Shown in pieces: positions 2,647-48,640 of a stretch of DNA of 64,000 nt. The number at the start of each line of letters is the position of its first letter. Within the stretch, counting starts at the first letter, position 1. A program made the translations under genes and the position numbers. Below the pieces are notes generated by a model that was not told the DNA's origin, did no database searches, and worked only from the letters and a program-made list of their open reading frames with translations. The stretch is from an uncultured Bacilli bacterium (GTDB lineage: Bacteria; Bacillota_I; Bacilli_A; RF39; UBA660): positions 393-64,392 of the forward strand of contig CAKOLD010000002.1 of the NCBI GenBank assembly GCA_934096015.1, written 5' to 3'.

Positions 2647-3168
2647 ATGAAAAAATTAAAAAATAATAAAAAAGGTTTTACGTTAGTAGAATTACTTGTA
2701 GTTATAGTTATTTTATCTGTAATTATTATTATATTAGGAAATACAGCATTACCTATGATGGGAAAATTGAAGAAAAATGGAATGTTAACTTATGCAGAGA
2801 GAGTTGTTTCTAATGCTGCTACTTCTATTCAAGCTGATTCAATTACAAATCCTACTATTGCTGGTAAAGGATATAGTATTGAAGATTTAATGGGGAGCAA
2901 GTCTTATTTTGGATGTGTGTATGTAAAAGTGGATAATACTACTGGAAGCCCAGTTTATACTTATACAGTACTTATGTATTCTAAGGCGGATAAATATCAA
3001 TTTAAAGGAGAAACAACAACTGCAACATTTGATGGTGACATTGATACTTTAGCACCAGGATATGGAGGAAGCATACCTGCAACTAATCTATATAATTCTA
3101 CTACATGTAATGTTGCTCCAACAGCTAGTAGCATCTATAAAGAAGCTGCACCAGCAGCAACACCATAA
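2647..3168 (+). CDS. prepilin-type N-terminal cleavage/methylation domain protein (type IV pilin / pseudopilin-like)
   Basis: N-terminus 'KKGFTLVELLVVIVILSVI' = class III signal (G/FTLVE) plus hydrophobic helix. Confidence 0.65.
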   Translation: MKKLKNNKKGFTLVELLVVIVILSVIIIILGNTALPMMGKLKKNGMLTYAERVVSNAATSIQADSITNPTIAGKGYSIEDLMGSKSYFGCVYVKVDNTTGSPVYTYTVLMYSKADKYQFKGETTTATFDGDIDTLAPGYGGSIPATNLYNSTTCNVAPTASSIYKEAAPAATP

Positions 3169-24283: not shown

Positions 24284-24318
24284 AAATATTATAATTTATC
24301 TGATATAATACTCTTATG

Positions 24319-24404
24319 CCTGCGTGGTGAAATCGGTAGACGCGCTGGACTCAAAATCCAGTGATAGCAATATCGTGTCGGTTCAAGTCCGACCGCAGGC
24401 ACCA
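24319..24404 (+). tRNA. tRNA-Leu (anticodon CAA)
   Basis: acceptor GCCTGCG/CGCAGGC, anticodon loop 'ctCAAaa', long variable arm, T-arm GGTTCAAGTCC, encoded CCA; TATAAT at ~24305. Confidence 0.85.
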
Positions 24405-31366: not shown

Positions 31367-32467
31367 ATGAAAAAAATTAATTTTTTAGTGCTAGTTTTAT
31401 TTTGTTGCATGTTTTGTGTTTCAGTTAATGCTGCAAATTCTGGAGATTCAGTAGGCAGTAATTTAACTGAATATAGTTGTTCTAAGTTTCAAGATTCTAA
31501 TATGCTTATTGATAATGATACTTATTTTGGAAGATGTATGAAAGCTACTTGTAGTGGTAATAGATGGAAATTTAGTTATTATTCAACTGAATCAGTTTCT
31601 TGTTCAAATGGTAATTTAAATCCATATATTACTGTTTCTAAATCTGGATGTGATGATTATCAGAATAGTAGTTGTACAGGTACTGTAGTAAAATATTGTA
31701 CTACTTTAAATTATTTTGATTGTAATAGAACAGCTAATGGATCTAAATATGTAAAACCTACTAAAAAGGTAACAAAAACTACTACAGTTGCACCAACAAC
31801 AGAAGCTCCAACTACAGCTGCACCTTTAGATAATAATACTTACTTAAGTAGTTTAAAGGTATCTAGTGGATCAATTAATTTTAATAAAGATGTTAAAGAA
31901 TATAGCATTGAAGTTGAATCTACTATTTCTAGTATTAATGTTGAAGCAACTGCTGAATCTGGAACTTCAACTGTTAGTGGAACAGGGGCAGTAAGTTTGA
32001 GTGATGGAGTAAACACTGTAACTATTACGGTTACTGCCCAAGATGGAAGTACAGATAATTATGTAATTAATATTAACAGAAAAGAAGTATTATCTAAAAA
32101 TGCTAAATTAGCTTCTTTAACTGTTGATGGATATGATATAAATTTTGATCCTGATACTTATAATTATTCTTTAAAAATAAAAAAAGAAAGTACTTTGTCA
32201 ATAGAAGCAACTACAGAGGATAGTAGTGCAATTTATATGGTTCAAGGCAACGAAAATTTAAAAAATAATAGTATGATTAAAGTTGTTGTTACCGCTCCTG
32301 ATGGTGCAACTACTCAAGAATATACAATTACTGTACGTAAGTCTGGTAATGGAGCTGTTGTTATAGTAATTTTGGTTTTGATTTTAGCAATAGGTGGAGG
32401 AGTAGCTGGTTTCTATTTCTACACTAGAAAGAAAAATGCAGGGGATAAAGAGTATGAGTACGAATAA
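31367..32467 (+). CDS. surface protein: Cys-rich N-domain, Thr/Ala/Pro linker, two cadherin-like repeats, C-terminal TM anchor
   Basis: signal peptide; 'TYLSSLKVSSGSINF', 'AKLASLTVDGYDINF' repeats; C-terminal TM. Confidence 0.55.
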   Translation: MKKINFLVLVLFCCMFCVSVNAANSGDSVGSNLTEYSCSKFQDSNMLIDNDTYFGRCMKATCSGNRWKFSYYSTESVSCSNGNLNPYITVSKSGCDDYQNSSCTGTVVKYCTTLNYFDCNRTANGSKYVKPTKKVTKTTTVAPTTEAPTTAAPLDNNTYLSSLKVSSGSINFNKDVKEYSIEVESTISSINVEATAESGTSTVSGTGAVSLSDGVNTVTITVTAQDGSTDNYVININRKEVLSKNAKLASLTVDGYDINFDPDTYNYSLKIKKESTLSIEATTEDSSAIYMVQGNENLKNNSMIKVVVTAPDGATTQEYTITVRKSGNGAVVIVILVLILAIGGGVAGFYFYTRKKNAGDKEYEYE

Positions 32468-32887: not shown

Positions 32888-32909
32888 AATATAAATAGAG
32901 GTGAGTAAA

Positions 32910-35423
32910 ATGAAAAAATTTTTACATTATTTTTTAGCATTTTTAATTCCTATATTAATTTTTTGTTTAGCAATGTATTTTATGAATTTGTATCCTTTTG
33001 GAGATCAATCCTTTAGAATAAAAGATGCTTTTAGTCAATATCCTGCTTTTTTTGAAGGTTTAAGACAAGGAAATTTCTTTACTTTTAAAATAGGTTTAGG
33101 CACTAATTTTTATCCAATATTTACAACCTATTTAGCTAATCCTCTTAATTTAGTGTATTTTTTATTTAAAAATTATCAATTTGAAATATTTTTCTTTCTT
33201 TTAATAATTTTTAAAATTGGATTAATAGGACTTAGTATGAATATATTATTGAATTATAAAAATGGATATAATAAATGGTCACTATTATTTTCTACAATAT
33301 ATTCTTTATGTGGATTTGTTTCACTTTATTATTTTAATTATCAATTTTTAGATGCATTATATATGTTACCATTAATTATGATAGGAATAGATAAAATAGT
33401 AAGTAATGATAAAAATTTAATGTATTTTATTACTCTTACTTTAATGATAATATTTCATTATTATACAGCTTATATGATATGTGTTTTTTTGGTAATTTAT
33501 TTTTTCTTTTTATTATATAATAAGGATTTTAATAAAAAGACTAAATTAAAAAAGATAAAAAAATTTTTTATTACAAGTTTATTTTGTGGTTTATGTTCTT
33601 CTTTTATAACTATTCCTACTTTTTACAGTTTATTGCAGGGAAGAACTTCATATTACGAAGGCTTAAAATATTTTGCTATTAATAAAAATGGAGGATCTTT
33701 CTTTTATAATTTAACTTCTTCTAGTACTTTTGTTACAGATTTAATAGGTACATGTGCACCAGTTTTTATTACTTTACTTGTTATAGTTTTAATTATTTTT
33801 ACTTTCTTTAGAAAAGATATCAATAAAAAATATAAGGCTTCTTTATTGATAATAATTTTATTATATTTTCTTTCTTTAAGTTTTAATTTATTTTATGATG
33901 CTTGGCATGTATTTCAGGAGCCAGTAGGATTACCTGGAAGGTTTGTTTTTACTTTTAATGCTTTTTTAGTTTTAATTTCTTATAATACTTTTTTAAATAT
34001 TCCTAAAATTAAAATTAAAAATAAAATTATTATTTATATAGTTACAATTGTTACAATATTATTATCATTTTTATATAAATTATATTTAATTAATTTTAAA
34101 GAATTAGATAATATTTATTATTATATGATAATATTCAATTTATTATCTTTATTTTGCTATATATTTTTTATGGATAAGAAAAAAGGCAAATATTTAATTA
34201 TATTTTTAGTATTATGTGAATTATTATGTAATCAAATATTTTCTTTTAATGTTTCATTTGCTTATGCTAAATATGATGATCGTACAGTTAATTTAAAAAA
34301 GGAAAAAGATATTGCTGAATTTTATGATAATTTAAAAAATAATAACTATCTAAGAATGGAAACGTATGATAGTTATAACAGTGGTATGTTTTATAATTAT
34401 AATTCTGTTAGTTATTACGTTTCAATTTATAATAATAATTTAAGTTTATTTGTAAATAAAAGTAATAAAAATAGTGAAAATAGTGAAAATTATATGCACA
34501 TAATTTCCTACAAATCCAATTTTTTATTTGATTCGTTTTTTGGCATTGGAAATACTGTTTATTTTAAATCAGATGATATGTGTTATGAAAAACATAATGG
34601 TGTAGTTATTAAAAGCTTAGGATTTTTAGTGAATAGTGATGATCTATATAATGATTTAAATAATTCTATTGATGATATTGTAAAATTGTATAATGATTTT
34701 ACAAAAAATAAGTATAATTTAAAATTGAAGGAATTAACACCAAGTATAGTATATGATAATGTTAAATTAAATGATGGTATTTTTTCTTTAATTAACGATA
34801 ATTACGATGGGAAAGTAAGGTTTAAATATATATTTGATGAAGATATGTATATTAATCTTGATTTATTAGAAGGACAGTATTTTACTTATTTGAAATCTGG
34901 AGTTGAATATGATACCGAAGATACCATCAATGTAATTTATAATAATAAAAAGGTTAATAGTGTGAATAAGGTAAGAAAAGGAGATAAGTTAGAAATCATT
35001 TTAACTATTCCAAGAGATTTAAAATCAGTTCTAAATAATTTTAAAAATATTACTGGTGTAAATAAACAAGTTTTTACTAATGTAATTAATGATTTAAATG
35101 AGAATGTTATTGAAGATATTACATTTAATTCTTTTGGGTTTACGGGGGATTTACAATCAACTTCTGATAAAAATTATGCAGTATTAACAATTCCTTATGA
35201 TGAAAATATTTTAATAAAAGTGGATGGAGAAAAAGTTAATTATAATAAAATATTAGGTGGGATAATAGGTTTTAAAATACCTGAGGGCCGCCATAAAATA
35301 GATTTTGAATATCACATAAAAGGCTTAAAAATGGGAATAATAATATCAAGTATTAGTTTAGTAGTGTTTTTGTTTACAAAAATTCTTGAAAAAAAAAATA
35401 ATACTAGGTATAATAATAGGTGA
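32910..35423 (+). CDS. YfhO-family GT-C membrane glycosyltransferase
   Basis: N-terminal 'MNLYPFGDQSFRIKDAFSQYPAFF' YfhO hallmark, ~13 TM in first 450 aa, large extracytoplasmic C-domain, final TM. Confidence 0.7.
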   Translation: MKKFLHYFLAFLIPILIFCLAMYFMNLYPFGDQSFRIKDAFSQYPAFFEGLRQGNFFTFKIGLGTNFYPIFTTYLANPLNLVYFLFKNYQFEIFFFLLIIFKIGLIGLSMNILLNYKNGYNKWSLLFSTIYSLCGFVSLYYFNYQFLDALYMLPLIMIGIDKIVSNDKNLMYFITLTLMIIFHYYTAYMICVFLVIYFFFLLYNKDFNKKTKLKKIKKFFITSLFCGLCSSFITIPTFYSLLQGRTSYYEGLKYFAINKNGGSFFYNLTSSSTFVTDLIGTCAPVFITLLVIVLIIFTFFRKDINKKYKASLLIIILLYFLSLSFNLFYDAWHVFQEPVGLPGRFVFTFNAFLVLISYNTFLNIPKIKIKNKIIIYIVTIVTILLSFLYKLYLINFKELDNIYYYMIIFNLLSLFCYIFFMDKKKGKYLIIFLVLCELLCNQIFSFNVSFAYAKYDDRTVNLKKEKDIAEFYDNLKNNNYLRMETYDSYNSGMFYNYNSVSYYVSIYNNNLSLFVNKSNKNSENSENYMHIISYKSNFLFDSFFGIGNTVYFKSDDMCYEKHNGVVIKSLGFLVNSDDLYNDLNNSIDDIVKLYNDFTKNKYNLKLKELTPSIVYDNVKLNDGIFSLINDNYDGKVRFKYIFDEDMYINLDLLEGQYFTYLKSGVEYDTEDTINVIYNNKKVNSVNKVRKGDKLEIILTIPRDLKSVLNNFKNITGVNKQVFTNVINDLNENVIEDITFNSFGFTGDLQSTSDKNYAVLTIPYDENILIKVDGEKVNYNKILGGIIGFKIPEGRHKIDFEYHIKGLKMGIIISSISLVVFLFTKILEKKNNTRYNNR

Positions 35424-35443: not shown

Positions 35444-35680
35444 ATGAAAGAAGCAAGTGGAGAATTAAGTATGACTGCTGTTGCAATTGTTGCAATTGCT
35501 GCATTAAGTGTTTTGTTCTTAACTGTTATATTTCCAAATATAAAACGTAGTTTAGAACATAATCAATTATGTTCTGCAGCATATGGGTGTACTAATTGTA
35601 CAGGTGGAGTATGTACTTGTACAGCGGTAAATAGCTCTGGTGCAACTACTACTGTAACTTGTGATGACCCAAATAAATAG
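35444..35680 (+). CDS. 78-aa membrane-anchored Cys/Thr/Gly-rich peptide (minor pilin-like?)
   Basis: strong RBS AAGGAGGA; 'MKEASGELSMTAVAIVAIAALSVLFLTVIF' then 'CSAAYGCTNCTGGVCTCTAVNSSGATTTVTC'. Confidence 0.4.
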   Translation: MKEASGELSMTAVAIVAIAALSVLFLTVIFPNIKRSLEHNQLCSAAYGCTNCTGGVCTCTAVNSSGATTTVTCDDPNK

Positions 35681-35704
35681 TCTTTATAGAAAGCTTGTTA
35701 TAAA

Positions 35705-36163
35705 GTGAGAGAGTCTATTGGTGGTGCATGGCTTTTAGGAATTGTTATGACTTTCATTGTTTTATTTGCTAGTTTTTTGGCAGTTTCAATTAATTATTCT
35801 AAAGCTTTTAAAGTTAAAAATAATGTTGTTGATTTAATAGAAAAAAATGAAGGTGTTAATAGTTCAACTGTTGCAGATATATATAATTATTTGCAGAGTG
35901 AAGGATATATTCTTAAGGGGCCATGTAGAAATGGTGGAAAAGGTTTTGACAAGGATGGCGTAGCAACTAATCAATCAAAGTCTTTGTATTGTGTTAAAGA
36001 AAATAAAATACAGGATACTGATACAGGACTTGAAAAATCTTATTATAGTGTAGAAGTGTTTTTTAGATTGGATTTGCCTATTTTTGGAGATGTTTTTACA
36101 TTCCATGTTAATGGAGAAACTATGAGTATATATTTTCCTAAAAATGGGTGGACATTAAGTTAG
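35705..36163 (+). CDS. small N-terminally anchored protein (pseudopilin/TadE-like topology?)
   Basis: N-terminal hydrophobic helix 'AWLLGIVMTFIVLFASFLAV'; start uncertain (GTG). Confidence 0.3.
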   Translation: MRESIGGAWLLGIVMTFIVLFASFLAVSINYSKAFKVKNNVVDLIEKNEGVNSSTVADIYNYLQSEGYILKGPCRNGGKGFDKDGVATNQSKSLYCVKENKIQDTDTGLEKSYYSVEVFFRLDLPIFGDVFTFHVNGETMSIYFPKNGWTLS

Positions 36164-37202: not shown

Positions 37203-37231
37203 TTGACAAAAATATATAAATAATATATGAT
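37203..37231 (+). promoter_or_regulatory. strong sigma-A-type promoter for pilin-like gene
   Basis: TTGACA-17-TATGAT. Confidence 0.55.
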
Positions 37232-37257
37232 GTTGTTGTAGGAAAGAAGAGGTATAT

Positions 37258-37623
37258 ATGAATTTAGTAATGTTAGGGGCATTTAATGATTTTTGTTCAG
37301 AAATGTCTGGGATGTTAAAAATTGTTGGTTATGTTGTAACAATTTTTAAAGTAGCTATACCTTTAATAATCGTTATTTATGGAATGATTGATTTAGGTAA
37401 AGCAGTAGTTGCTAGTAAAGATGATGAAATTAAAAAGGCTGCTAAACAAGTTGGTGTTAGATTAGCTGCAGGTATTTTAATTTATTTCATACCATCATTA
37501 GTAATGTTAGTATTTGGATGGATAAGTGACTATAATAATTTAATGACTGAATCTGAATTCCAAGTTTGTTCAAATTGTATTTTGAAACCTGGGGATTGTG
37601 AAGGAAAAGGTTTAGATGGATAA
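37258..37623 (+). CDS. VirB2/TrbC-like pilin-like small membrane protein (paralog 2), CxxC tail
   Basis: 'IPLIIVIYGMIDLGKAVVASKDDEIKKAAKQVGVRLAAGILIYFIPSLV' helix-loop-helix; 'CSNCILKPGDCEG'. Confidence 0.45.
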   Translation: MNLVMLGAFNDFCSEMSGMLKIVGYVVTIFKVAIPLIIVIYGMIDLGKAVVASKDDEIKKAAKQVGVRLAAGILIYFIPSLVMLVFGWISDYNNLMTESEFQVCSNCILKPGDCEGKGLDG

Positions 37624-37650
37624 AACAACTTTACAGTTGTTTTTTTGTTT
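37623..37650 (+). terminator. rho-independent terminator after pilin-like gene
   Basis: stem aaacaact/agttgttt, T-run. Confidence 0.75.
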
Positions 37651-37682
37651 GTTATAATATTTAGTGTATTATACTAAATAGA

Positions 37683-38294
37683 TTGAGTTGGTGGCATGTG
37701 GATAAAAAAGTAGTTGTTGTATTAATAATTATATATTGTGCTTTATGTTGTATTAAAGTTAATGCCGATGTTAGAGTTAATGTTGGGGAAACCAAAAGTG
37801 TTTTTAGAAATAGTGCTTGTACAATAACTAATTGTACAACACTTGATAGTAATGTTGAAGTTTCGTTTAATAATGATGTTTGTAAAGCAAAGGCCTTAAC
37901 TGTAGGTGAAGCTAATGTTAAAATAACTTGTGAACAAGGTGAAGAAAAGATTATTAAAGTTAATGTCGTAGATGGTAATTCTAATAATACAACGGTTCCT
38001 AATACTAGTGCTAGTGTTGCCGAAGCTAATTGTTCATCTTTGGCGTTGCTTGTAAAGGATTTACAAGGTGTTTTTAAAATAATTAAATTTGTTGTTCCAA
38101 TATTGATTGTTGTAATGAGTACTTATGATTTTATTAAAGCTATTGCTGGCAAGGTTGAAGGAGAAATGAAAAAGGCTTTTCAAAAACTTTTAAAAAGATT
38201 GTTATTTGCAATTATATTGTTTTTCTTGCCTAATATATTAGATTTCTTTTTGGGCTTAATTGACCCTAGTTATACAACTTGTATAAATAGTTAG
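37683..38294 (+). CDS. pilin-like paralog 3 with N-terminal Cys-containing beta-rich extracellular domain
   Basis: C-terminal 90 aa 'FVVPILIVVMSTYDFIKAIAGKVEGEMKKAFQKLLKRLLFAIILFFLPNIL' aligns with paralogs 1 and 2; start uncertain (TTG/GTG). Confidence 0.4.
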   Translation: MSWWHVDKKVVVVLIIIYCALCCIKVNADVRVNVGETKSVFRNSACTITNCTTLDSNVEVSFNNDVCKAKALTVGEANVKITCEQGEEKIIKVNVVDGNSNNTTVPNTSASVAEANCSSLALLVKDLQGVFKIIKFVVPILIVVMSTYDFIKAIAGKVEGEMKKAFQKLLKRLLFAIILFFLPNILDFFLGLIDPSYTTCINS

Positions 38295-38310: not shown

Positions 38311-40401
38311 ATGAGCAATCTGGTTTTAAATGCATCTTTGATAGGAGATTGGTTTTATGGTATTTGGATTAATCTTTGGCTTTTAATAGATAACGTTGTT
38401 TATTTGTTTATAAATTGGATGTATCGTATATTTATTTTAGTTGCTAAAGTAGATATTTTCGGTGGTGGAGAACAAATTGAAGCTATTACTAGAAGAATAT
38501 ATATTATTGTTGGTATTGCCATGTTGTTTATATTTGCTTATAACTTAATATTGTTAATTGTTAATCCAGATGGAAAACAGTTAGGTAATATGTCACAAGT
38601 TATAAAAAATGCTATTATTTCTATTGCTCTTGTAACACTTTTACCTTTAATTTTTAGTTATATGACTACTGTTCAAAATCATATTATAGATGGTGATGTT
38701 ATCGGTAATTTGATTTTTGGAACAGCAAATAACAAAAATTCTTCAAACGAGAAAGCAGGTATTAATGTTGCTTTGAGTATTTTTTCGGCTTTTTATCATC
38801 CTGATGGACAATCATATAATTCTTGTAAAGCTGATCCTTCTGCACATTCTTTATGTGCAACTTACGTCCAAGCTTATGATGATGCTTTAGCAAACGAAAA
38901 TATGACTTTGTTTATTTGGAATGAGGATTTGAAAGATGGTGCTAAAGATAACGACATGGAGTATAACTGGATAATTTCTACTGGTGCAGGTATTTTTGCT
39001 TTGTGGATGTTTGTTTCTTTTGCACTAGATATTGGAGTACGTGTTGGGAAGATGGCTTTTTATGAGCTTGTTTCACCCATTCCCGTGATGTTGCGTATAA
39101 TGCCTAATGATAAGAAATTTAATGCATGGTTTAATGGAATCAAGAGTACTTATATTTCTCTTTTTGTTAGATTAGCGATCATATATTTTTCTATGTATGC
39201 AATTACTTTAGTTCCTGATGTACTTAGTAATATGTGGGCAGATATGTCGCAAGATAATGTAGTTTTAGCGATGCTTGCAAATGTTGTTATTATTTTGGGT
39301 ATTCTTAAATTTGCTCAAGAGGCACCTAAATTATTTAAAGATGTCCTTGGTGGCAGTGGTGATATTAGTCTTGGTATTGCTAGCAAAATTAAAGATAATA
39401 AAGCTCTTGCAACTGGTACAAGTTTTGTACGTGGTGGAGTTTATGGTGCTACTACTGGCGAAGGATTTGGTGGAAGAGTATCAGGATTCTTTGGTGGAGC
39501 TACTAGGGGAGCAAGATATGGATATCAAGATGGTGTTAATAGATTAGAAGAATCTAGAGAAGCTAAAGAAAATGGTTCAACATTTAGAGGAAGAATGGCT
39601 GATAGGGCACGTTATGGATTAGGAATGCAAACTCGTGCTGATGCTGCTGATAGAAATTTAGAAAGACAATATGCTGCAGAAGTTGAACAAAATGAGAAAG
39701 ATCTTATTCAAATTCAAAAAGATAGAGATAGAGAGAATATCGCAACAAGACAAGCTTACAATAAAGAGGTTATGGGATATCGTTCAGATATAAAGAAAAT
39801 TGCTGATAGTTGGGCTGAAAGAACTAACTCACAATTTACATATGATGCTGGCGATAGCTATATTGACCATAATGGAAATAATGTTGATATTAAGGGAAAT
39901 TTAAGTCAATTAAATCAAATGTATGAATCTGCAAAAGCAAATGGTGCTGATGCCCAAACTCTTAGCAAATTGCAAGGTGCAATTTCTAAGGCTAAAGGTA
40001 ATATTAGAAATCAAATTGTTGATTCTGTAATGAATGGAACAGCAGAAAGCCGCGGAATTGGTTCTAATGATGTTGCTAAGATTAATGGTGATATTGAGTC
40101 TATAAATACAATGATTAGGGATAATCAAGTTGGTTTAAAAGCAGATGGTACTGCAACATTAACTACTGAAGTGACGGATGCTAAGGGTGTATTTAGTGGT
40201 GTTGAAAATGCAGTTTTAGAACAAGAAAGAGATATAGAAAGTGTTAATAGAAACTTGGATAGAAAACAACAAGAGATCGAAAGACGTCAAAAAGAAATTG
40301 AAAATCGTAAAAAAGAAGCTAAGGCTAGTGATCGATACAAGAGTGTTAGAGCGGATGCAGATGCAATAAATCATAAAAAAGGTGGCGGAAATGCTAAATG
40401 A
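38311..40401 (+). CDS. VirB6/TrbL-like polytopic T4SS channel protein with long charged/coiled-coil C-terminal domain
   Basis: >=6 TM helices in first 330 aa, Gly-rich segment, coiled-coil tail; upstream of VirB3/VirB4 as in PrgH-PrgI-PrgJ and Tn916 orf15. Confidence 0.5.
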   Translation: MSNLVLNASLIGDWFYGIWINLWLLIDNVVYLFINWMYRIFILVAKVDIFGGGEQIEAITRRIYIIVGIAMLFIFAYNLILLIVNPDGKQLGNMSQVIKNAIISIALVTLLPLIFSYMTTVQNHIIDGDVIGNLIFGTANNKNSSNEKAGINVALSIFSAFYHPDGQSYNSCKADPSAHSLCATYVQAYDDALANENMTLFIWNEDLKDGAKDNDMEYNWIISTGAGIFALWMFVSFALDIGVRVGKMAFYELVSPIPVMLRIMPNDKKFNAWFNGIKSTYISLFVRLAIIYFSMYAITLVPDVLSNMWADMSQDNVVLAMLANVVIILGILKFAQEAPKLFKDVLGGSGDISLGIASKIKDNKALATGTSFVRGGVYGATTGEGFGGRVSGFFGGATRGARYGYQDGVNRLEESREAKENGSTFRGRMADRARYGLGMQTRADAADRNLERQYAAEVEQNEKDLIQIQKDRDRENIATRQAYNKEVMGYRSDIKKIADSWAERTNSQFTYDAGDSYIDHNGNNVDIKGNLSQLNQMYESAKANGADAQTLSKLQGAISKAKGNIRNQIVDSVMNGTAESRGIGSNDVAKINGDIESINTMIRDNQVGLKADGTATLTTEVTDAKGVFSGVENAVLEQERDIESVNRNLDRKQQEIERRQKEIENRKKEAKASDRYKSVRADADAINHKKGGGNAK

Positions 40402-40426
40402 TAATGAATAAAGAGTGGGTGAAAGT

Positions 40427-40735
40427 ATGAATGATCAATTTTTAATACCAGCAAATTCTAAAAAATCTATGTTAATATTAAGTTTCTTTAATGTAACTGA
40501 TTTAATAATATTTGGTAGTGGATGTTTGTTAACTTTTATTTTGTTAATGACAATTAATCAAAATACAATTGAATCAGCTGCAATAATTTTGGCACCGGTG
40601 CTTGTAACAGGTATTTTAGTATTACCTGTTCCTAATCACCATAATGTTAGAACTTTTATAAAAAACGTTTATCAATATTTTGCTAATAGAAGAACTTATT
40701 TTTGGAGAGGTTGGTGTATAAGACATGGCAAGTAA
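40427..40735 (+). CDS. VirB3-like small two-TM protein
   Basis: ~100 aa, two TM helices, directly precedes VirB4 (PrgI / ConD position). Confidence 0.4.
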   Translation: MNDQFLIPANSKKSMLILSFFNVTDLIIFGSGCLLTFILLMTINQNTIESAAIILAPVLVTGILVLPVPNHHNVRTFIKNVYQYFANRRTYFWRGWCIRHGK

Positions 40736-41276
40736 TTCTAAATTTACAGAAGATTGGTTACCAATTAGAAATATAAAGAATGGTTTTATTGAACTTGAAG
40801 GTAAATATTATGTGACTGGTGTAAAAATAGAACCTAAAAATATATTTATTTTAGATTATACTGAACAACAAGCAATTATATTTAATTTTAGAAATGTTTA
40901 TAATTCAATTGATTATGAATTTTGGTTAATGGTTGCTGATAGACCTGTTGATATTAATATGTATTTAGCACAATTACAACTTTTATATAATCAAGCTCCA
41001 AATCAACAAATAAGAAAATTAATTGCTCAAGATATTAATAAAGGAGAAAGATTTAGAAGTACTGAAATCAATGCTGTTGATACAGAGTACTTTATTATAT
41101 TTAGAGATAAAAAAATTGAAACTCTTCAAAAAAGAGTACATCAGTTAATATCAAGTCTTGCTTCATGTGGACTTAATTCCAAACAAGTTAGCGATGAGGA
41201 TTTAAGAGTATTATTGGATAGTTTTCTAAATGGAAATAGAAAAACGGAATTTGGGACGGTGATTGCTAGTGAATAA
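40725..41276 (+). CDS. VirB4-family ATPase, N-terminal fragment (split gene)
   Basis: 'DWLPIRNIKNGFIELEGKYYVTGVKIEPKNIF' typical Gram-positive VirB4 N-terminus; ends TAA at 41274 while the ATPase domain continues in the +1 frame. Confidence 0.55.
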   Translation: MASNSKFTEDWLPIRNIKNGFIELEGKYYVTGVKIEPKNIFILDYTEQQAIIFNFRNVYNSIDYEFWLMVADRPVDINMYLAQLQLLYNQAPNQQIRKLIAQDINKGERFRSTEINAVDTEYFIIFRDKKIETLQKRVHQLISSLASCGLNSKQVSDEDLRVLLDSFLNGNRKTEFGTVIASE

Positions 41277-43071
41277 TAAATTAAAAAGTGAGTTGGCTCC
41301 TAAAGGTTTAGATTTTAATATAAATGATTTTGTTATTAGCGATATGTATTGTACTATTTTAACTATTGTTAATTTTCCAAAGATGATTGGCCCAGGATTT
41401 CTTGCTAATGTAACTAGTATCCCTGGTGTTAAATTAGTTATTAAACATATTCCTATAGAATTTTCAACTATGTCAAAAATGATTAATAAAGAGATAGCTG
41501 ATTTAAAGCAAAGATATCAAAGTGAAAATGATAGAACTATGCAAGAAAGTATTAGACAAGATTATGAGTCTTTAGAGTCATTTGTATCTATGCTTGCTTC
41601 TACTCAATCTAGAATATTTGATTTTCAAATGCATGTTATGTTATCTGCTGAAACTAAAGATCAGTTGGAAATGAAAAAAATTCAAGTAAGAAATTATTTG
41701 GATGCTTTGGGTATGAGAGGAATACCAATGATGTTTGAACAAGAGAAAGTTCTAAAATCTATAATTCCAATTTTTCCTAAACAAGATATTGAAGCTAGAG
41801 TAGGAACGCCGATACCTAGTCCTACTATTGCAGCAATGTATCCTTTTGTATTTGATAGTATAAAAGATCCTGGAAATAATAATTCAGCTCCAACTTTGCT
41901 TGGTGTAGATTTTTCAGGAGGAGTTGTATTATTTAACCAATTTTTATACCAAATTAGAAAAGAGTTTAATAGAAATAATGCTAATATGATTATATTAGGT
42001 ACGAGTGGTAGTGGTAAATCTACTGCTGCAAAATTAATGCTTAGAACTCATATAAGAAATGGTTGTCAAATTATTTGTATAGATCCTGAAGGTGAACTTG
42101 AGGAAATGACAAAAACTTATGGTGGTGATTTTATTTCTCTAGGAAAAGGTGGAGAATTTGGTTTAATTAATCCATTAGAAGTTGTTGCAGATGTTGATGA
42201 GGATGAATTAAAACAAGGTTTAGGTTATACAGTTTTAACTAGAACTTTGCAATCTTTAAAAGCATTTTTAAAGTATTATAGTCCATCTATTGAAGAAGAT
42301 GTACTTGCAATGTTTAGTGAAGTATTACAAGATACTTATAAACGTTTTAATATTGATTTTAATACTGATTTTAGTAATTTTAAACCTGAAGATTTTCCGA
42401 CTTTTGATGATGTCTATTCAACTATTAAGGGGAGATTATTATCTATTCCAGAAATGACAAAAGAAAAAGATGTTTTGGAAAGATTAGAATTAAAGATAAG
42501 ACCTTTTGTTAAAGAATTACGTTATTATTTTACTGGCCATACTACTATTGAGCGAGATAGTGACTTTATGGTATTTAATATAAAAGAAGTTATGAATAGT
42601 GATGAAAATATTCGAAATGCATTATTCTTTAATATCTTAAAGTTTGCTTGGGGATTATGTTTAGATAAATCTGTAAATACAGTTATGCTTGTAGATGAAG
42701 CTCACGTTCTTTTAGGAAGTAGAAATGAATTGGGTGCAGAATTCTTAGCACAAATTCAAAGACGTAGTAGAAAATACAATACAGGTACAATAATAATTAC
42801 TCAACAACCAACTGACTTTGCTGCTGATAAAATAATAGTTCACGGTAAAGCAATATTTGATAATGCTTCTTATTATTTAGTTATGGGACTTAAAAAACAA
42901 GCAGTAGAGGATTTAGCAAAATTAATTGATTTGAATGATAATGAAAAAGAGAGTATTAAAACGTATTCTCAAGGTGAGGCTTTGTTTGTTTGTGGTAATA
43001 GAAGAATGAGAATAAATGTGGTTGTTACTCAAGAAGAATTAGATTCCTTTGGGTCAGGCGGAGGATTATAG
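41263..43071 (+). CDS. VirB4/TraE-family ATPase, C-terminal part (Walker A and B)
   Basis: 'IILGTSGSGKST' Walker A, 'VMLVDEAHVLL' Walker B; TTG start immediately after in-frame TGA. Confidence 0.8.
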   Translation: MLVNNKLKSELAPKGLDFNINDFVISDMYCTILTIVNFPKMIGPGFLANVTSIPGVKLVIKHIPIEFSTMSKMINKEIADLKQRYQSENDRTMQESIRQDYESLESFVSMLASTQSRIFDFQMHVMLSAETKDQLEMKKIQVRNYLDALGMRGIPMMFEQEKVLKSIIPIFPKQDIEARVGTPIPSPTIAAMYPFVFDSIKDPGNNNSAPTLLGVDFSGGVVLFNQFLYQIRKEFNRNNANMIILGTSGSGKSTAAKLMLRTHIRNGCQIICIDPEGELEEMTKTYGGDFISLGKGGEFGLINPLEVVADVDEDELKQGLGYTVLTRTLQSLKAFLKYYSPSIEEDVLAMFSEVLQDTYKRFNIDFNTDFSNFKPEDFPTFDDVYSTIKGRLLSIPEMTKEKDVLERLELKIRPFVKELRYYFTGHTTIERDSDFMVFNIKEVMNSDENIRNALFFNILKFAWGLCLDKSVNTVMLVDEAHVLLGSRNELGAEFLAQIQRRSRKYNTGTIIITQQPTDFAADKIIVHGKAIFDNASYYLVMGLKKQAVEDLAKLIDLNDNEKESIKTYSQGEALFVCGNRRMRINVVVTQEELDSFGSGGGL

Positions 43072-43083
43072 GCGGTGAAGCTA

Positions 43084-45165
43084 ATGAATATGAAAAAATA
43101 TAAGTTATTAAAACAAGGTATTATTTCGATATGCTTAGTTTTAATAGCTCTTTTTTCTATTAGAGTTGAAGCAGCTAACTTTGCGTATGCTGATTTTGAC
43201 TGGGATAAATTTTATGATGAAAATATAGATTATTGGACTGATTATTGTACTCATAATTCTGGTAATATGTCTGTTAAAGAATGTGTAGAAATTGTTTTGT
43301 CTGGAAAAAAAGAATATTATGTAAAATTATATAAATTACTAGCAAAATATGAAAGAAAAGGGTTTAAATTAAATGATAACATTGTGTTAGCAACTTCTTT
43401 TTTTGATTTAACACCAGATACATTTACAGAATTACCAGAAGAGTATAAAAAAGAATACATGGATGGTTCAGCTTATAATATTGATACTGAAGAAGATATT
43501 GATAGTTATGATGTTGATACTGATGAAAGTATTGAATATTATCAAAATGAAAAAGATTCTTTAAAAATTTTATTAAAGCATATGTTTTCTTATAAAGCTG
43601 TTTGTAATGGGAATGCTGGAACGCCATCTGTGGATTCTAATGGAAATAAATATTGTGCTTCTGGAACTCTAGATGGAGATACTTGTAGTTCAGTAATAAA
43701 AACTTATGATTTAAATTATTCTGAATATTTAATATCTAAATTAGGTTTTATTGGAAGATTATTTGGTTTAAAAGACAAAAATAGAGATGATTGTTTAAAT
43801 AATGGTGGGGTTAGTTATAAAGTAATTAATGGAAAACAAATTAATTATGATATATATTGGAAGTTTTTAACGGAATCTACTTATTTTGATACGAAAAAAC
43901 ATTTAACAAATAGGTATAAAAAAATATTAGAAAAAACTAATCATTCTCGTATGACTGAATTAAGTGAAAGTGAGTATGAAGCTAATGAAGCTGATATTAT
44001 TAAGATACGTGAAAGAATAGTTAAAGAAATTAAGTCAATACTCGAAGATTATGAAGATTATATGGCTAATACTCCTGATAGTTATAGTTCTAGTTGTACT
44101 GGAGGATCTTTATGGTGGCCTATAGGTGGAGATACTACTACTAATGAAGGTAATGCAATTTTTGCTAAAGATGCTCCTAGTAACTTAAATATTAATAGTC
44201 CTTATGGAAATCGTAAGCATCCTATTACTGGAGAAATGAAGAACCACACTGGTGTTGATTTAGCTGGAACTGAAAATGTTAGTAATGTAATTGCGGTAAA
44301 AGATGGTGTTGTTGTTTATCCCACAAGTAGCGACCCAACTAATTGTCCAAGTAGTACTTCACTTGATAATTGTGGTGGAGGTTATGGAAATTATGTAGTT
44401 ATTCAACATAATGATGGAACTTATACCTTGTATGCGCACATGTACGCTTCTAGTATAACTGTTAAAGAAGGCGATAGTGTAAAACAAGGCCAAGTTATAG
44501 GTAAAGTTGGTAGTAGTGGAAATTCTACTGGAGCACATTTACACTTTGAAGTTAGACAAGGAACCAATAGTTCAAGTTCTAGTGTTGATCCTATGACAAT
44601 ATTATCTAGTGAAAATCCTCGAACTATGAGTGGAGTTTGTGGCGGAACTGCATCAAGTGATTTTATTACATTTTTACATTCTTGGGAAAATGGTAATGCT
44701 GCACCAGAAAGAGATGGAAAATACGTAGTACATGATGATGGCGCTGGTATTCCAACTGTTGGATATGGAGTAGCGTTAAAATATAATATTGAAAGATTTA
44801 GACAAAAGGGAATTGATGTTACAGGAATGACTTTTGGTGATACAATTGATAAATCAATAGTGGATGCTGTTGAGAATGAAGAAATAAATGAAGCATTTAA
44901 TAATGTTAGAAATAAATTATCTGAAAATAATATTACTTTAGCTGAATATCAAATTGAAGCTTTAGTAAGTCGTTATTATAATTGTGGTAATATTAATAAT
45001 TTTCCTTCTATGTATTTAAATTATGGTGATACTGACGCTTTATATGATAATTATATGAGCAAACCAGTAACTGGACAGGGAGTTGGATACTTAAGTGGTC
45101 TTGAAAGAAGAAGAAAAGCTGAATGGCAATTGTTTCATTATCATAATTATGAACTTAACAGTTAG
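43084..45165 (+). CDS. secreted bifunctional peptidoglycan hydrolase: M23/LytM peptidase + phage-type (GH24-like) lysozyme domain
   Basis: signal peptide; 'HTGVDLAG...GYGNYVVIQH...GAHLHFEV' (HxxxD, HxH); 'ERDGKYVVHDDGAGIPTVGYGV' (E-D-T lysozyme triad). Confidence 0.75.
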   Translation: MNMKKYKLLKQGIISICLVLIALFSIRVEAANFAYADFDWDKFYDENIDYWTDYCTHNSGNMSVKECVEIVLSGKKEYYVKLYKLLAKYERKGFKLNDNIVLATSFFDLTPDTFTELPEEYKKEYMDGSAYNIDTEEDIDSYDVDTDESIEYYQNEKDSLKILLKHMFSYKAVCNGNAGTPSVDSNGNKYCASGTLDGDTCSSVIKTYDLNYSEYLISKLGFIGRLFGLKDKNRDDCLNNGGVSYKVINGKQINYDIYWKFLTESTYFDTKKHLTNRYKKILEKTNHSRMTELSESEYEANEADIIKIRERIVKEIKSILEDYEDYMANTPDSYSSSCTGGSLWWPIGGDTTTNEGNAIFAKDAPSNLNINSPYGNRKHPITGEMKNHTGVDLAGTENVSNVIAVKDGVVVYPTSSDPTNCPSSTSLDNCGGGYGNYVVIQHNDGTYTLYAHMYASSITVKEGDSVKQGQVIGKVGSSGNSTGAHLHFEVRQGTNSSSSSVDPMTILSSENPRTMSGVCGGTASSDFITFLHSWENGNAAPERDGKYVVHDDGAGIPTVGYGVALKYNIERFRQKGIDVTGMTFGDTIDKSIVDAVENEEINEAFNNVRNKLSENNITLAEYQIEALVSRYYNCGNINNFPSMYLNYGDTDALYDNYMSKPVTGQGVGYLSGLERRRKAEWQLFHYHNYELNS

Positions 45166-45174: not shown

Positions 45175-45672
45175 ATGAAGAAAAATAATATAATATTAGT
45201 TATTATTTTAGTTTTACTATTTGCAGTTGCTTTAACTTTGGTATATTTAGAAAAAAGAGATGGTAAAGATGCTCTAGTAACTGAAAATAAAAAGGTTAGT
45301 GTTTTAAAAAATTATAATGAGTTTTATACAGTAAATTCTTGTGTATATCGTTATTTAACTTATGTTCAATCTCGTAATACTGATTTTTTATTAAAAGTAT
45401 TGGATGATAGTTTTGTTAAAAATAATAATATTAATTCTACTAATGTTTTAAATTTTATTAATGTTTATGAGGGAAATATTAATTTTAATTCAAGAAAGAT
45501 GTTTTATGAAAAAGTTAATAGCCATATAACAAAATATTATGTTTATGGATATGTTGAAAAAGATATTATAGATGATGATCCTTTAAGGTATGAAGCTTAT
45601 TATATAGTTAATTTAGATAGTAAGAATAAGGTTTTTTCAATTATGCCTTATAGTGGAGAGTTATTTAAATAG
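45175..45672 (+). CDS. small N-terminally anchored protein, NTF2-sized ectodomain (VirB8/PrgL-like?)
   Basis: one TM + ~130 aa; position after the hydrolase as PrgL after PrgK. Confidence 0.3.
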   Translation: MKKNNIILVIILVLLFAVALTLVYLEKRDGKDALVTENKKVSVLKNYNEFYTVNSCVYRYLTYVQSRNTDFLLKVLDDSFVKNNNINSTNVLNFINVYEGNINFNSRKMFYEKVNSHITKYYVYGYVEKDIIDDDPLRYEAYYIVNLDSKNKVFSIMPYSGELFK

Positions 45673-45680
45673 GTGAGATT

Positions 45681-46169
45681 ATGGAATATATAAAAAAAAA
45701 TATTATGTTAATTATTTTTGTAATATTAGTTATAATATCTTGTATAGTTCTTGTGTTATCTAAAAAAAGTAAAGAAGATGGTTATTATGAAAGAGAAGAA
45801 GTTACTTTAAAAAATTATGAAGTAAATGAGTATATTCCAGTGAATATTACTTATGATCAAATGGCGAGAATTTATTTGCAAGAATATATTTATAAAATAC
45901 TCAATGATAGAGAAGAAGCTTATAATTTATTGGATGCAAATTATAGAAAAGAAAAATTTGGAAGTTATGAAAAATTTAATGAGTATATTGAGGGTATTTT
46001 AAGTGATAAAACTAGACAAGCAGTTGTTTTAAAATATGCTGTAACTGATAAATCTAATTATAGAGATTTTGATATAATTGATGCTAATAATAATTTATTT
46101 ATATTTAGAGAAACTGGGGTTTTACAATACCGGGTTTATTTTGATAGGTATACAGTTTCAATGAGATAG
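45681..46169 (+). CDS. small N-terminally anchored protein, NTF2-sized ectodomain (VirB8-like?)
   Basis: same architecture as preceding gene. Confidence 0.3.
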   Translation: MEYIKKNIMLIIFVILVIISCIVLVLSKKSKEDGYYEREEVTLKNYEVNEYIPVNITYDQMARIYLQEYIYKILNDREEAYNLLDANYRKEKFGSYEKFNEYIEGILSDKTRQAVVLKYAVTDKSNYRDFDIIDANNNLFIFRETGVLQYRVYFDRYTVSMR

Positions 46170-46185
46170 AAAGGAGGAGATCCTT

Positions 46186-47943
46186 ATGGAAAAGTATGAA
46201 GCAAGAAGAGATGGGGAAAAGACTGAAAAAGAACAATTTGAGGAGTCTAATGAAAAACTTGCTAAAACCGCTTTAAAGGGAGCTGCGACTTATTTTGCTC
46301 CAGGAGTTGGTGGTACAGTTGTAGATATGGCTAGTAATACTAAAGCTGGGCAGAAAATAATAAAAGGTGCTGGAAAACTTATGCAACGTACAGAACTTGG
46401 AAAACATGCTGTTAAACTTGATAAAAGTGGAGTGACCGATGCTGCAGATAAGGCTTTAGATTATGTAAATCCAGGTAGTGGTGCCGCTGGTGCTGCAAAA
46501 GGAGCTACTAGTGGTGCTGCAAAAAATGGAGTATCAGGAGCCACAAAAAATGGAGCGGGAGAAGCTGCTAAAAATTCTTTAACAAAAGGATCAACTCATT
46601 CCGATTCTTCTTTAGGAAAATCTAGTGAAATTCCTCAAGGAGATGAATTAAATAATACTTCAAAATCAAATAAAAAATCATTACTTGATTTTGGTGGTGG
46701 AAATTCTAGTGGAGGATTTAATCTTGATATAGTGGGATTAATTGGTAAAAAGAAGTTAATTATAGCTGGTTCTGTAGTGTTTTTATTTTTAATAATAATG
46801 GTTTCTATTGTTTCTGCGAAAGACTTTGGTAACTTAGATTTAACTAATGGTTCTACGGCAATGCCAAGTGGTTCTAGAGGAAGTAGAAATTGTACAGTAG
46901 AAGAGGTAGAAAATAATTTGCTATATGTAGGGGATTCTCGTATTGAAGGTATGAGGGATTCTTTAGATAATACAAATGTGCAGTATGTTGCTGCAAGCAG
47001 TCAAGGTTATTCGTGGTTAACTTCAACTGCTACTAGCGAGTTAGAGTCTACTATAAAAGATGGCTCAATAGTTGTTTTAAGTTTGGGAGTTAATGATTTA
47101 TACAATATTGATAATTATATTAATTATTATAAAGAATTAATGGCGAAATATCCAAATAATACTTTTTATGTTATGAGTGTTAATCCTGTTGATGATGCTA
47201 AAGCAAGTGCTAGTGGGGATCCTGCAAGAAATAGTGATATAGAGGAATTTAATAATAAATTAAAGAGTGCTTTTCCAGATAAATATATTGATTCTTATAA
47301 TGCAATTAAAGGAAGTATTAATACTAACGATGGGGTTCATTATAATACTGATACAAATAAAGAAATTAATAATTATGTAACTAGTTCAATAAGTAGTTCT
47401 GGTAATACGAGATGTGGTACTAGTGCTGGAGCTGGAGGCGATTTAGCAGGTAAATTAGAGGAGGTTGGTACTTGGTATATTGCAAATGTTTCTACTTATC
47501 AGAATGGTAATTCTGGATCTAGAAAATATTATCAAACTCCGTTTGGTTCTAGATCTTTTGGTGATGATTGTACGGAATTTGTTGCAGCTTACATGAGTTA
47601 TATGTGTGGAAGTGATGTTCCTGAATCATATTCTGGAGATATGGTTTATCCTGATGGATCGTGGGCGCAAAGCGTTGCAAGTTGTGGATGGAAGGCTTAT
47701 AGTAGTGATGAAATAGATTCTTTACAAACTGGTGATGTTTTGATAGCACATGCAGGTGCTTTATATAGTACTAAAGGTCATCATGGAGAAATTTATATAA
47801 ATGAAAATCAGACTTTTGGATGGGGAAGTGTTAAAAGTTCTTATCCTACAAGTAACAGTATTCAAAAAGTTGAAAGTGGTGGCCATGTCCATTACAAGGA
47901 TTCTACTCATGATTATGTAACGATATATAGATATGAAGGTTAG
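46186..47943 (+). CDS. membrane-anchored SGNH/GDSL hydrolase + CHAP domain protein
   Basis: Gly/Ala-rich N-region, central TM, SGNH blocks 'VGDSR','GVNDL','DGVHYN'; CHAP 'DDCTEFVAAY' Cys and 'GHHGEIY' His. Confidence 0.6.
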   Translation: MEKYEARRDGEKTEKEQFEESNEKLAKTALKGAATYFAPGVGGTVVDMASNTKAGQKIIKGAGKLMQRTELGKHAVKLDKSGVTDAADKALDYVNPGSGAAGAAKGATSGAAKNGVSGATKNGAGEAAKNSLTKGSTHSDSSLGKSSEIPQGDELNNTSKSNKKSLLDFGGGNSSGGFNLDIVGLIGKKKLIIAGSVVFLFLIIMVSIVSAKDFGNLDLTNGSTAMPSGSRGSRNCTVEEVENNLLYVGDSRIEGMRDSLDNTNVQYVAASSQGYSWLTSTATSELESTIKDGSIVVLSLGVNDLYNIDNYINYYKELMAKYPNNTFYVMSVNPVDDAKASASGDPARNSDIEEFNNKLKSAFPDKYIDSYNAIKGSINTNDGVHYNTDTNKEINNYVTSSISSSGNTRCGTSAGAGGDLAGKLEEVGTWYIANVSTYQNGNSGSRKYYQTPFGSRSFGDDCTEFVAAYMSYMCGSDVPESYSGDMVYPDGSWAQSVASCGWKAYSSDEIDSLQTGDVLIAHAGALYSTKGHHGEIYINENQTFGWGSVKSSYPTSNSIQKVESGGHVHYKDSTHDYVTIYRYEG

Positions 47944-47950
47944 TGGTAAA

Positions 47951-48640
47951 ATGCGAATGAAAAAAATATTTTTGTTGTTTGTAATGTTGTTTATGCTAAC
48001 AGGATGTACTGCGAATTATGAGTTGTCATACTATAATGATAGCTTGGAAGAAAAATTGATTATTCCTAGTTCAAATGTAGAAACAAGTAATGGCTATACT
48101 TTAAATGCTTTGTTGGAAGATTATTTTAATAATATGAATTTATTAGTTAATTATAAAATTCAATCAGGTGATGGGGATGATAATAATTATCCACATTATA
48201 ATAAAAGTTTTAGTACGGTTTCTGGTCTAAATTTAAATTATTCTTATTCTGAGAAGGAAGATTTTAATAATTCTTCTATAGTTTATAGTTTATTTGAAAA
48301 AGTTAATATTACTGATAATTATATAAAAGCCAGAGAGATAAAAAATATATTTAATAATTATGAATTATTGGATGAAATAAATATTGTTTTTAAAACTGAT
48401 AAGAATGTTACTAGTAATAATGCAGATAAAATTGTTAATGACGAGTATATATGGGTTATTAATAAAAATAATTATCAAAATAAAATTATTAACATTACTT
48501 ATGATAATAAAAAAAAGATAAATGTATTTGGAGAAAAAGAAAATTCTATTTTAAATTATATATTAATTATATTAGGATCAGTATTGGCATTAGGGGTTTT
48601 AATAGTATTTTTTAAAATAAGTATTTCTAATAAAAAATAA
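47951..48640 (+). CDS. lipoprotein with C-terminal TM anchor
   Basis: lipobox 'FMLTGC'; C-terminal 'ILIILGSVLALGVLIVFF'; start moved to ATG 47951. Confidence 0.45.
   Translation: MRMKKIFLLFVMLFMLTGCTANYELSYYNDSLEEKLIIPSSNVETSNGYTLNALLEDYFNNMNLLVNYKIQSGDGDDNNYPHYNKSFSTVSGLNLNYSYSEKEDFNNSSIVYSLFEKVNITDNYIKAREIKNIFNNYELLDEINIVFKTDKNVTSNNADKIVNDEYIWVINKNNYQNKIINITYDNKKKINVFGEKENSILNYILIILGSVLALGVLIVFFKISISNKK

Follow-up and report, generated by a model that had tools for sequence, protein, structure and literature searches.

Paralogous helical-hairpin proteins as candidate pilin-like subunits beside a type IV secretion locus in RF39-type Bacilli

Introduction

VirB2-like pilin arrays of an MPF-FATA-like type IV secretion system (T4SS) were reportedly described in Patescibacteria by Wang in 2023. 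Gram-positive T4SSs have no virB2 homologs, with Patescibacteria as the sole exception (PMC12102498; PMC12857230, the latter a December 2025 review). In Patescibacteria, 2–11 divergent VirB2-like genes (PF04956/PF18895) lie beside an MPF-FATA-like, mostly relaxase-less T4SS (PMC12102498, PMC12857230); one such array is essential, and its filament is hypothetical (PMC12857230). Whether pilins belonged to the ancestral monoderm T4SS was left open by Quinonero-Coronel in 2025 (PMC12102498). Here we analyse a stretch of 64,000 nt (hereafter the window) from an uncultured Bacilli bacterium (RF39; UBA660; assembly GCA_934096015.1, contig CAKOLD010000002.1, positions 393–64,392 of the forward strand), and within it three paralogous genes, P1, P2 and P3, that lie in a T4SS locus. 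A preliminary description of this DNA had taken their products for VirB2/TrbC-like pilins and had remarked that such pilins are not normal in Gram-positive T4SSs, a remark with which the literature agrees (PMC12102498, PMC12857230). Our favoured explanation, to which we give roughly an even chance (about 0.5) when all its parts are taken jointly, is that P2 forms the abundant core of a T4SS-associated polymer or conduit, that P1 and P3 are minor, exodomain-displaying subunits, and that the ends of the hairpin are stapled by a disulfide.

Judged by sequence, the locus appears to be the Patescibacteria-type pilin-array design in a member of the Bacillota, with its closest T4SS models coming from Mycoplasma integrative and conjugative elements (ICEs). 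Shared with the Patescibacteria arrays are small two-helix hairpins with PF18895 profile matches, tandem divergent paralogs (2–11 there, 1–8 here) beside monoderm VirB6/VirB3/VirB4 genes, and a chromosomal position, usually with no relaxase nearby, in hosts with reduced genomes. In contrast to Patescibacteria, the host here belongs to the Bacillota and the sequences form a divergent sub-branch, mostly below the PF18895 threshold. The distinctive features of the present family are a four-cysteine (4-Cys) hallmark, N-terminal exodomains on most of its 148 best representatives, one strongly conserved, domain-free paralog (the putative major subunit) with its own promoter and terminator, and frequent linkage to a Tad-like module. 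As for the Mycoplasma ICEs, their Mbov_0396/MMCAP2_0566 and Mbov_0397 families are the best NCBIfam models of the VirB6-like and VirB4 proteins in the window, the order of pilin-like gene, polytopic membrane protein and VirB4 is the same, and the hairpin family weakly matches all three small and membrane ICE models, yet far below the curated cut-offs. Unlike in those elements, a DDE transposase, a relaxase and an att repeat were not found here, the locus is chromosomal with a gene order that recurs in metagenome-assembled genomes (MAGs) of many species, and neither the cysteine signature nor the N-terminal exodomains are described for the ICE proteins. We found no paper in which a T4SS is linked to RF39 or VirB2 to Mycoplasma ICEs.

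P1, P2 and P3 are paralogs with a predicted hairpin topology

The window is of uniform composition (~26% GC), with nearly all genes on the plus strand. All three open reading frames (ORFs) of the preliminary description are present (Table 1), together with the Cys-containing tails reported there (CFDCVLSPTECR and CSNCILKPGDCEG), and their proposed paralogy is borne out by two kinds of search. By BLASTP, P2 is 40% identical to P1 (E=9e-11) and 30% identical to the C-terminus of P3 (E=4e-11), while P1 and P3 match each other at E=2e-6. When the window, translated in all six frames, was searched with a hidden Markov model (HMM) of P2 orthologs, exactly P2, P1 and P3 were retrieved (2.7e-56, 6.2e-21 and 9.9e-15), the next match being at 0.066. 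In P2 just 12 residues stand ahead of the first conserved Cys. The start of P1 overlaps the 3′ end of the cadherin-like surface-protein gene 31367–32467, which suggests translational coupling, and the true start of P3 is more likely the GTG at 37698, giving 198 aa, because it is called so on identical metagenome contigs.

The AlphaFold2 model of P2, computed from a 48-sequence alignment at a predicted local distance difference test (pLDDT) score of 80, is a long helical hairpin (helices 17–52 and 55–88) followed by short C-tail helices. Hydropathy analysis shows two transmembrane (TM) peaks, and the inter-helix loop carries six Lys/Arg residues, against none in the N-tail and two in the C-tail. 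The P3 model (pLDDT 67) comprises a signal helix, a seven-stranded beta domain (aa 29–96), a disordered linker and a hairpin (aa 117–193) with predicted helices 117–155 and 159–193. Two earlier proposals, a helical hairpin with a charged loop and an extra N-terminal beta-rich domain in the third paralog, are thus reproduced by the models, the latter as a predicted immunoglobulin (Ig)-like domain. Top Foldseek matches of the P3 domain are the VirB9 beta-sandwich (6gyb_B, 8rt6, 7o3t), lambda gpV, NCAM and Rib, all at E ~1e-4, and may reflect nothing beyond the general commonness of this fold. As the signal peptides of P1 and P3 put the region before helix 1 outside, the predicted topology of the hairpin is N-out, with the K/R-rich loop in the cytoplasm, and C-out; C13 and the C104/C107/C114 cluster of P2 would then share the outer face.

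The hairpin family is large and carries an almost invariant cysteine signature

In a set of 5.8 billion proteins, P2 has 365 homologs at E≤1e-3, nearly all of them 110–140 aa long and unannotated, the sole named match being a "Bacilli bacterium" MAG protein. Searches started from P1 and P3 returned few matches because these two diverge fast. In the 48-homolog alignment of P2, the invariant residues are C13, G24, P35, G42, D45, G47, K48, A49, K54, I58, K59, R68, P79, C104, C107, P111 and C114, among which C13, D45, R68, P79 and C104 are invariant throughout all three subfamilies. A profile search of the family against 1.84 billion cluster representatives retrieved 10,333 proteins at E≤1e-3 and 6,212 at E≤1e-10, each of these ~10,300 matches standing for a cluster at 50% identity. 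Cysteines and extensions were counted in the 148 best representatives, which are pairwise less than 50% identical: C13, C104, C107 and C114 are present in 144, 146, 144 and 135 of them, respectively, and P79 in all 148. Since these Cys flank the hairpin on what should be one outer face, we infer, as is natural, a disulfide staple that would join its ends; the "cyclisation chemistry" formerly suggested for the tails found no support, and the invariant Cys pair points to such a staple instead.

The ends of the family members vary greatly. An N-terminal extension of at least 60 aa occurs in 83 of the 148 representatives, 41, like P2, have at most 20 residues before the first Cys and hence no signal peptide, and 80 of the 105 representatives with extensions of at least 25 aa have signal-peptide-like N-termini. 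Among the extensions are GDSL lipases, a C39-like peptidase, Big_2 domains and alpha/beta hydrolases or esterases (e.g., P0156 and P0165). Mean top-residue frequency falls from 0.86 in the cytoplasmic loop to 0.66 in the helices and 0.19–0.37 in the outer tails (Cys motif excepted), a pattern that would fit a packed core with exposed, variable ends. By tblastn, no relative of P2 was found in 72,556 plasmids or in 2.9 million viral contigs, which argues against a plasmid-borne or phage/holin family.

Profile comparisons link the family to a predicted T4SS pilin family

By far the commonest family matched is PF18895 (T4SS_pilin; gathering score 26.6 bits), which was hit by 41 of the 48 P2 homologs at E≤0.1 (best 4.7e-7) and by 31 of 62 diverse family representatives at E≤0.01. 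The matches cover profile positions 2–71 of 71, i.e., both helices and the loop, and two members exceed the gathering threshold (P0056, 27.1 bits; P0074, 30.2 bits). Weaker matches point in related directions: 6/48 P2 homologs match the CagC family (the VirB2 of H. pylori), and 4/43 family members match NF045849, the "Mbov_0395 family pilin-like conjugal transfer protein" (best E 8.6e-4, below the curated cut-off). Sub-threshold matches to the NCBIfam families Mbov_0396 and MMCAP2_0566 were found for 21/43 and 13/43 members, respectively, the latter including P3 of the window at E=0.0026. From these profile matches, the P1–P3 family is probably a divergent branch of the Pfam-named T4SS pilin family.

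The VirB2/TrbC-like label of the preliminary description consequently stands at the level of the PF18895 family and finds no support for the canonical VirB2/TrbC proteins, with hhalign probabilities below 1% and no PF04956. Among the 25 most frequent families listed for the 48 P2 homologs and the 62 representatives, PF04956 (TrbC/VirB2) does not occur. Neither do holins, TcpE, PrgI, bacteriocins or A24 peptidases occur among those listed for these 110 members, so that the homology to holins or Tcp small membrane proteins considered at the outset was not found. A PDB sequence profile search returned only TM noise from G-protein-coupled receptors and ion channels.

With VirB2, TrbC and TraA, the hairpins share the predicted both-ends-out topology, the small size, the place 5′ of VirB3/VirB4-type genes and, possibly, joined ends, by peptide cyclisation there and by the putative disulfide here. 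They differ from these proteins in having no detectable sequence or profile similarity, in that P2 is without their long signal peptide, and in belonging to a monoderm cell; VirB5, VirB7, VirB9, VirB10 and VirB11 of those systems were not found in the window.

Expression signals around P2 are conserved

The promoter-like site 5′ of P2 matches the consensus at 11 of 12 positions. Alone, this match is weak, unremarkable evidence in AT-rich DNA, the window holding 161 promoter-like sites against 134 expected in DNA of 26% GC. It becomes strong evidence because it is conserved across loci: in the 81 orthologous loci used for the promoter and terminator counts, a site with at least 11/12 matches is present in 58 and one with at least 10/12 in 76, compared with 0.95% and 5.9% of random 120-nt windows from the same loci. 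The TTGACA element is almost invariant and keeps a fixed distance to the start codon. On the 3′ side, a hairpin with a T-run of at least five follows P2 orthologs in 77/81 loci versus 18% of random windows, and the mean fold energy there is −7.9 versus −4.9 kcal/mol. The near-consensus P2 promoter noticed earlier is therefore real as a site and conserved far above background; the terminator hairpins after P2 and P1 are likewise present, but the word "strong" formerly applied to them is not warranted, both being modest and AT-rich (−8.4 and −8.3 kcal/mol, z about −1.7). As far as such signals tell, P2 is a conserved, separately promoted and terminated unit, an arrangement that would suit a subunit made in excess. 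Ahead of P3, and overlapping the P2 terminator, lies another near-consensus promoter-like sequence (37630–37658), which reads TTTACA-17-TATAAT and has a TG upstream.

P2 orthologs lie mostly in T4SS loci, often with a Tad-like module upstream

Relatives of P2 were found in 425 genomes in a scan of one genome per GTDB species, and the best 80 of them served as the set of related loci. These 80 are almost all gut MAGs labelled "uncultured Bacilli", "Tenericutes", CAG:582, Ca. Coprovivens or Ca. Ventrenecus, of which Ca. Coprovivens is assigned to the Bacilli by NCBI. We take these names to belong to the RF39 order. RF39 bacteria are highly genome-reduced and auxotrophic (PMC12306168).

The conserved gene order runs from surface proteins, a P1-like gene, 35444, 35705 and 36173 (genes are called here by their first coordinate) to P2, and on through further paralogs, a P3-like gene and the VirB6-like, VirB3, VirB4 and hydrolase genes to a later type IV coupling protein. 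The order from P2 to the T4SS is kept in 37 of the 51 loci with enough downstream DNA; in about a quarter of loci, P2 does not neighbour the T4SS genes. Each locus holds 1–8 family members, whose arrays sit between P2 and the VirB6-like gene; P1-like genes occupy the equivalent position in L015, L020, L023, L038 and L051. On the 5′ side, synteny of 35444/35705 extends over 43–47 of the 80 loci, and a 36173 homolog lies directly 5′ of P2 in 45/75.

A Tad-like module lies 5′ of the 35444–35705–36173 trio in 29 of the 61 loci with at least 8 kb of upstream DNA. Besides DUF5411 it comprises a CpaB/RcpC-like gene, two polytopic proteins that match TadB/TadC in size and a T2SSE ATPase, which is 64–95% identical between species. 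Examples are L011 (3143–7400) and L026 (5858–9909), in which the module and the T4SS form one large same-strand super-locus. No T2SSE or platform genes were found within the 64 kb of the window. Among 41 loci with long flanks on both sides, T4SS genes lie 3′ of P2 in 27, P2 keeps the upstream trio only in nine (in L012 it is followed by a polytopic protein, MurJ-like by eye, and apparent housekeeping genes), and in five, all of one close clade, P2 stands directly after the Tad-like module and before AddB/AddA. Because all loci were chosen via P2, the sample cannot show which partner P2 needs.

Discussion

We propose that P1, P2 and P3 would each enter the membrane as a hairpin, with both termini outside and the conserved K-rich loop in the cytoplasm. 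A disulfide on the outer face, between the Cys before helix 1 and the Cys after helix 2, would staple the hairpin ends and act as a functional analog of the head-to-tail cyclisation of TrbC/VirB2. P2, domain-free and endowed with its own promoter and terminator, would be made in excess as the major subunit. It would be extracted from the membrane and, at the VirB6-like/VirB4 platform, assembled into a polymer, either a short pilus or a conduit that spans the wall. Paralogs with signal peptides and exodomains would co-assemble as minor subunits that display their domains, Ig-like in the case of P3 and lipases, peptidases or esterases in others.

Several observations weigh against this proposal. 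A filament of P1–P3 is hypothetical, and if every subunit polymerised, it would be hard to find room for the big N-terminal domains that many paralogs carry. A direct Pfam scan of P1, P2 and P3 gave no PF18895 match at E≤1; PF18895 itself is a predicted, not a demonstrated, pilin family, and hairpin folds are non-specific. Two family alignments compared by hhalign with eight VirB2/TrbC proteins from conjugative plasmids gave probabilities of 0.7% and 0.3%, and no solved pilin was matched by sequence or, as far as a non-specific hairpin can tell, by fold. Finally, in 14 of the 41 well-flanked loci P2 lies away from T4SS genes, with the trio or the Tad-like ATPase module.

The alternative that survives best, which we nevertheless consider unlikely, is that the hairpin is a non-filamentous membrane module, either an anchor that holds secreted domains (Ig-like, lipase, peptidase) at the cell surface or a T4SS channel subunit, stoichiometric and in the inner membrane, like the small TM proteins TcpD, ConC or PrgF of other Gram-positive systems; P2 would be a domain-free scaffold and no pilus would form. 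Such a module would readily carry the extensions of 60 aa or more seen in 83/148 representatives, mostly with signal peptides and some of them enzymes, and a stable membrane protein that meets a partner in the cytoplasm should be most conserved in its cytoplasmic loop, as is the case here. It would also agree with the absence of detectable likeness to proven pilins and with the fact that Gram-positive T4SSs studied so far function without pili (PMC12857230). However, it poorly explains the conserved promoter and terminator around the domain-free paralog and the strict 4-Cys signature of the outer face, and the consistent Pfam signal is PF18895, with no TcpE, PrgI or other small T4SS TM family among the families listed.

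Distinctly improbable in our judgement is a role of P2 as an accessory or anchor subunit of a Tad/Flp-like pilus module, acting with the T2SSE ATPase, the platform proteins and the 35444 and 35705 products. The genomic context lends itself to this idea: in related loci the genes directly 5′ of P2 encode small prepilin-like proteins and a CpaB-like protein besides two platform-like membrane proteins and a T2SSE ATPase, with the module present in 29/61 loci and the 35444 and 35705 products sharing a prepilin-like leader; in one clade P2 stands right between the module and AddB/AddA, and the nearest 10 kb hold no T4SS; and in nine further loci P2 retains the 35444–35705–36173 trio alone. Against it, paralog arrays are always on the T4SS side, the module's ATPase and platform genes are missing from the window, and at the family level it is T4SS pilin and ICE families that are matched, whereas Flp and TadE are not. 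P1, P2 and P3 have two helices, whereas the pilins of Tad and type IV systems have one, at the N-terminus, and the class III leader of those pilins (short, charged and Gly-ending, ahead of the single helix) is missing from all three. The loci with P2 after the module are, moreover, closely related, their ATPases being 92–95% identical, so that they may reflect a single rearrangement.

That P1–P3 are holins, bacteriocin or immunity peptides, or a prepilin-peptidase-like enzyme, as small size, two TM helices, richness in Cys and an invariant Asp (GxxDxGK) at the cytoplasmic end of helix 1 might suggest, is very improbable, given that no holin, Peptidase_A24 or bacteriocin is among the families listed for the 110 members, that the plasmid and viral sets hold no relative, that class II holins have the reverse of the N-out/C-out topology, and that arrays of paralogs with large exodomains would be unexpected. 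The peptidase idea, which came from the GxxDxGK motif, was dropped for want of an A24 match and because just two TM helices and exodomain paralog arrays are unlike an enzyme.

If the favoured explanation is right, this PF18895-related family, with its ~10,000 clusters and its place in T4SS loci of gut Bacillota, would mean that T4SSs with pilins also exist in the Firmicutes, and would bear on whether Patescibacteria inherited a T4SS already equipped with pilins (PMC12102498). It would also indicate a so far overlooked surface organelle in an uncultured, auxotrophic lineage that is common in the human and animal gut, and the putative 4-Cys staple together with the N-terminal fusions suggests modular display of enzymes or adhesins on such a structure. 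A bolder idea, which we regard as quite unlikely, is that the uncultured, auxotrophic, genome-reduced RF39-type Bacilli of the gut carry a vertically maintained, relaxase-less chromosomal super-locus (Tad-like motor, Gram-positive T4SS and an array of disulfide-stapled VirB2-like pilins that display adhesin and enzyme domains) and build with it a genuine T4SS pilus or conduit. The essential pilin-array T4SS of epibiotic Patescibacteria would then have its counterpart in this locus and might have evolved from it. Were this so, these gut bacteria might have a lifestyle that depends on cell contact and exploits host bacteria.

Features of the locus and its surroundings

Table 1. Coordinates of P1–P3, their expression signals and neighbouring genes in the window
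Feature	Position	Strand	Description or basis
P1	32436–32861	+	141 aa; signal peptide (cleavable-type), hairpin core, CxxC...C tail; alternative start 32454
Terminator-like element 3′ of P1	32861–32887	+	AT-rich hairpin and T-run; −8.3 kcal/mol, z −1.7
Candidate Flp-like prepilin	35444–35680	+	M[KR]EAxG leader-like N-terminus, hydrophobic helix; Cys-rich C-terminal part
Candidate TadE-like pseudopilin	35705–36163	+	M[KR]EAxG leader-like N-terminus, hydrophobic helix
Conserved protein directly 5′ of P2	36173–37189	+	338 aa; synteny
Promoter-like site 5′ of P2	37203–37231	+	sigma-70-type, TTGACA-17-TATGAT
Shine-Dalgarno of P2	37245–37252	+	AGAAGAGG
P2	37258–37623	+	121 aa; conserved core member, no extra domain, no signal peptide
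Terminator-like element 3′ of P2	37623–37650	+	hairpin with AT-rich stem and T-run; −8.4 kcal/mol
P3	37683–38294	+	203 aa; signal peptide, Ig-like beta domain, linker, hairpin; end ...TTCINS
VirB6-position polytopic membrane protein	38311–40401	+	aa 15–349 versus Mycoplasma ICE models; synteny
TcpE/VirB3-like gene	40415–40735	+	TcpE family match
Split VirB4 ATPase	40725–41276 and 41263–43071	+	best NCBIfam Mbov_0397 ICE ATPase (6.9e-19, 2.1e-100)
Cell-wall hydrolase (M23 peptidase and lysozyme), VirB1-type function	43075–45165	+	
VirD4-type coupling protein, CD1115 family	48687–50879	+	5e-55; 294 bits versus cut-off 250

The T4SS genes 3′ of P3 follow one another closely (Table 1). In the VirB6-position protein, aa 15–349 span the full MMCAP2_0566 and Mbov_0396 models (4.6e-17 and 1.5e-10), below the curated cut-offs. 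Its aa 56–117 weakly match PF18895 (E=0.34), and the hairpin family in turn weakly matches the N-terminal TM hairpin of the ICE VirB6-like models NF045889 and NF045848 (positions ~52–120); a direct hhalign comparison of the hairpin family with the VirB6-like N-terminus of the window showed no relationship (probability 0.2%). The VirB4 gene comes in two pieces with a 14-nt overlap, an N-terminal ORF of 183 aa and an ATPase ORF of 602 aa, and because both parts are consecutive in ~35 related loci, the split is conserved and no sequencing error. Four conserved ORFs without a solid family (165, 162, 585 and 235 aa) occupy 45175–48640, between the hydrolase and the coupling protein; the 585-aa product has weak GDSL and SUKH matches, the 235-aa product is a lipoprotein, and a VirB8-like component would be expected somewhere in this interval.

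Upstream of P2, the leaders of the 35444 and 35705 families read MKEA(S/T)GEL.MT... and MREAIGG.W..., and neither product has a Pfam or NCBIfam match. The 36173 product has no match in Pfam, NCBIfam or PDB, and its candidacy as a TadZ-like protein found no support in any of the three. Between P1 and 35444 (32901–35423) lies a full-length YfhO-family membrane protein (3e-120), limited at this place to close relatives of the window and seen in 0/80 GTDB loci. The region 5′ of P1 (27784–32467) encodes three secreted proteins with C-terminal TM anchors, rich in Cys and, as low-complexity sequence, in Ser/Thr/Asn, two of which (27784 and 31367) have cadherin-like beta-sandwich repeats.

Nothing marks the locus as a mobile element. 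Its flanks are core chromosome, with TyrRS, EzrA, IleRS and ScpA/ScpB on one side and the S10 ribosomal operon on the other, and the scanned window ORFs of at least 100 aa yielded neither a relaxase nor an integrase domain. A tRNA-Leu(CAA) gene (24318–24404) stands just 5′ of the first unknown ORFs of the region, and its 3′ end is repeated nowhere in the window; with neither such a repeat nor an integrase or relaxase detected, an ICE border is not indicated. ORFs 24558 and 46186 gave no match in the PDB. Elsewhere in the window, a 173-aa protein (2647–3168) carries the type IV pilin N-terminal methylation motif (PF07963, 1.7e-9), so this genome also encodes classical prepilin-type proteins.

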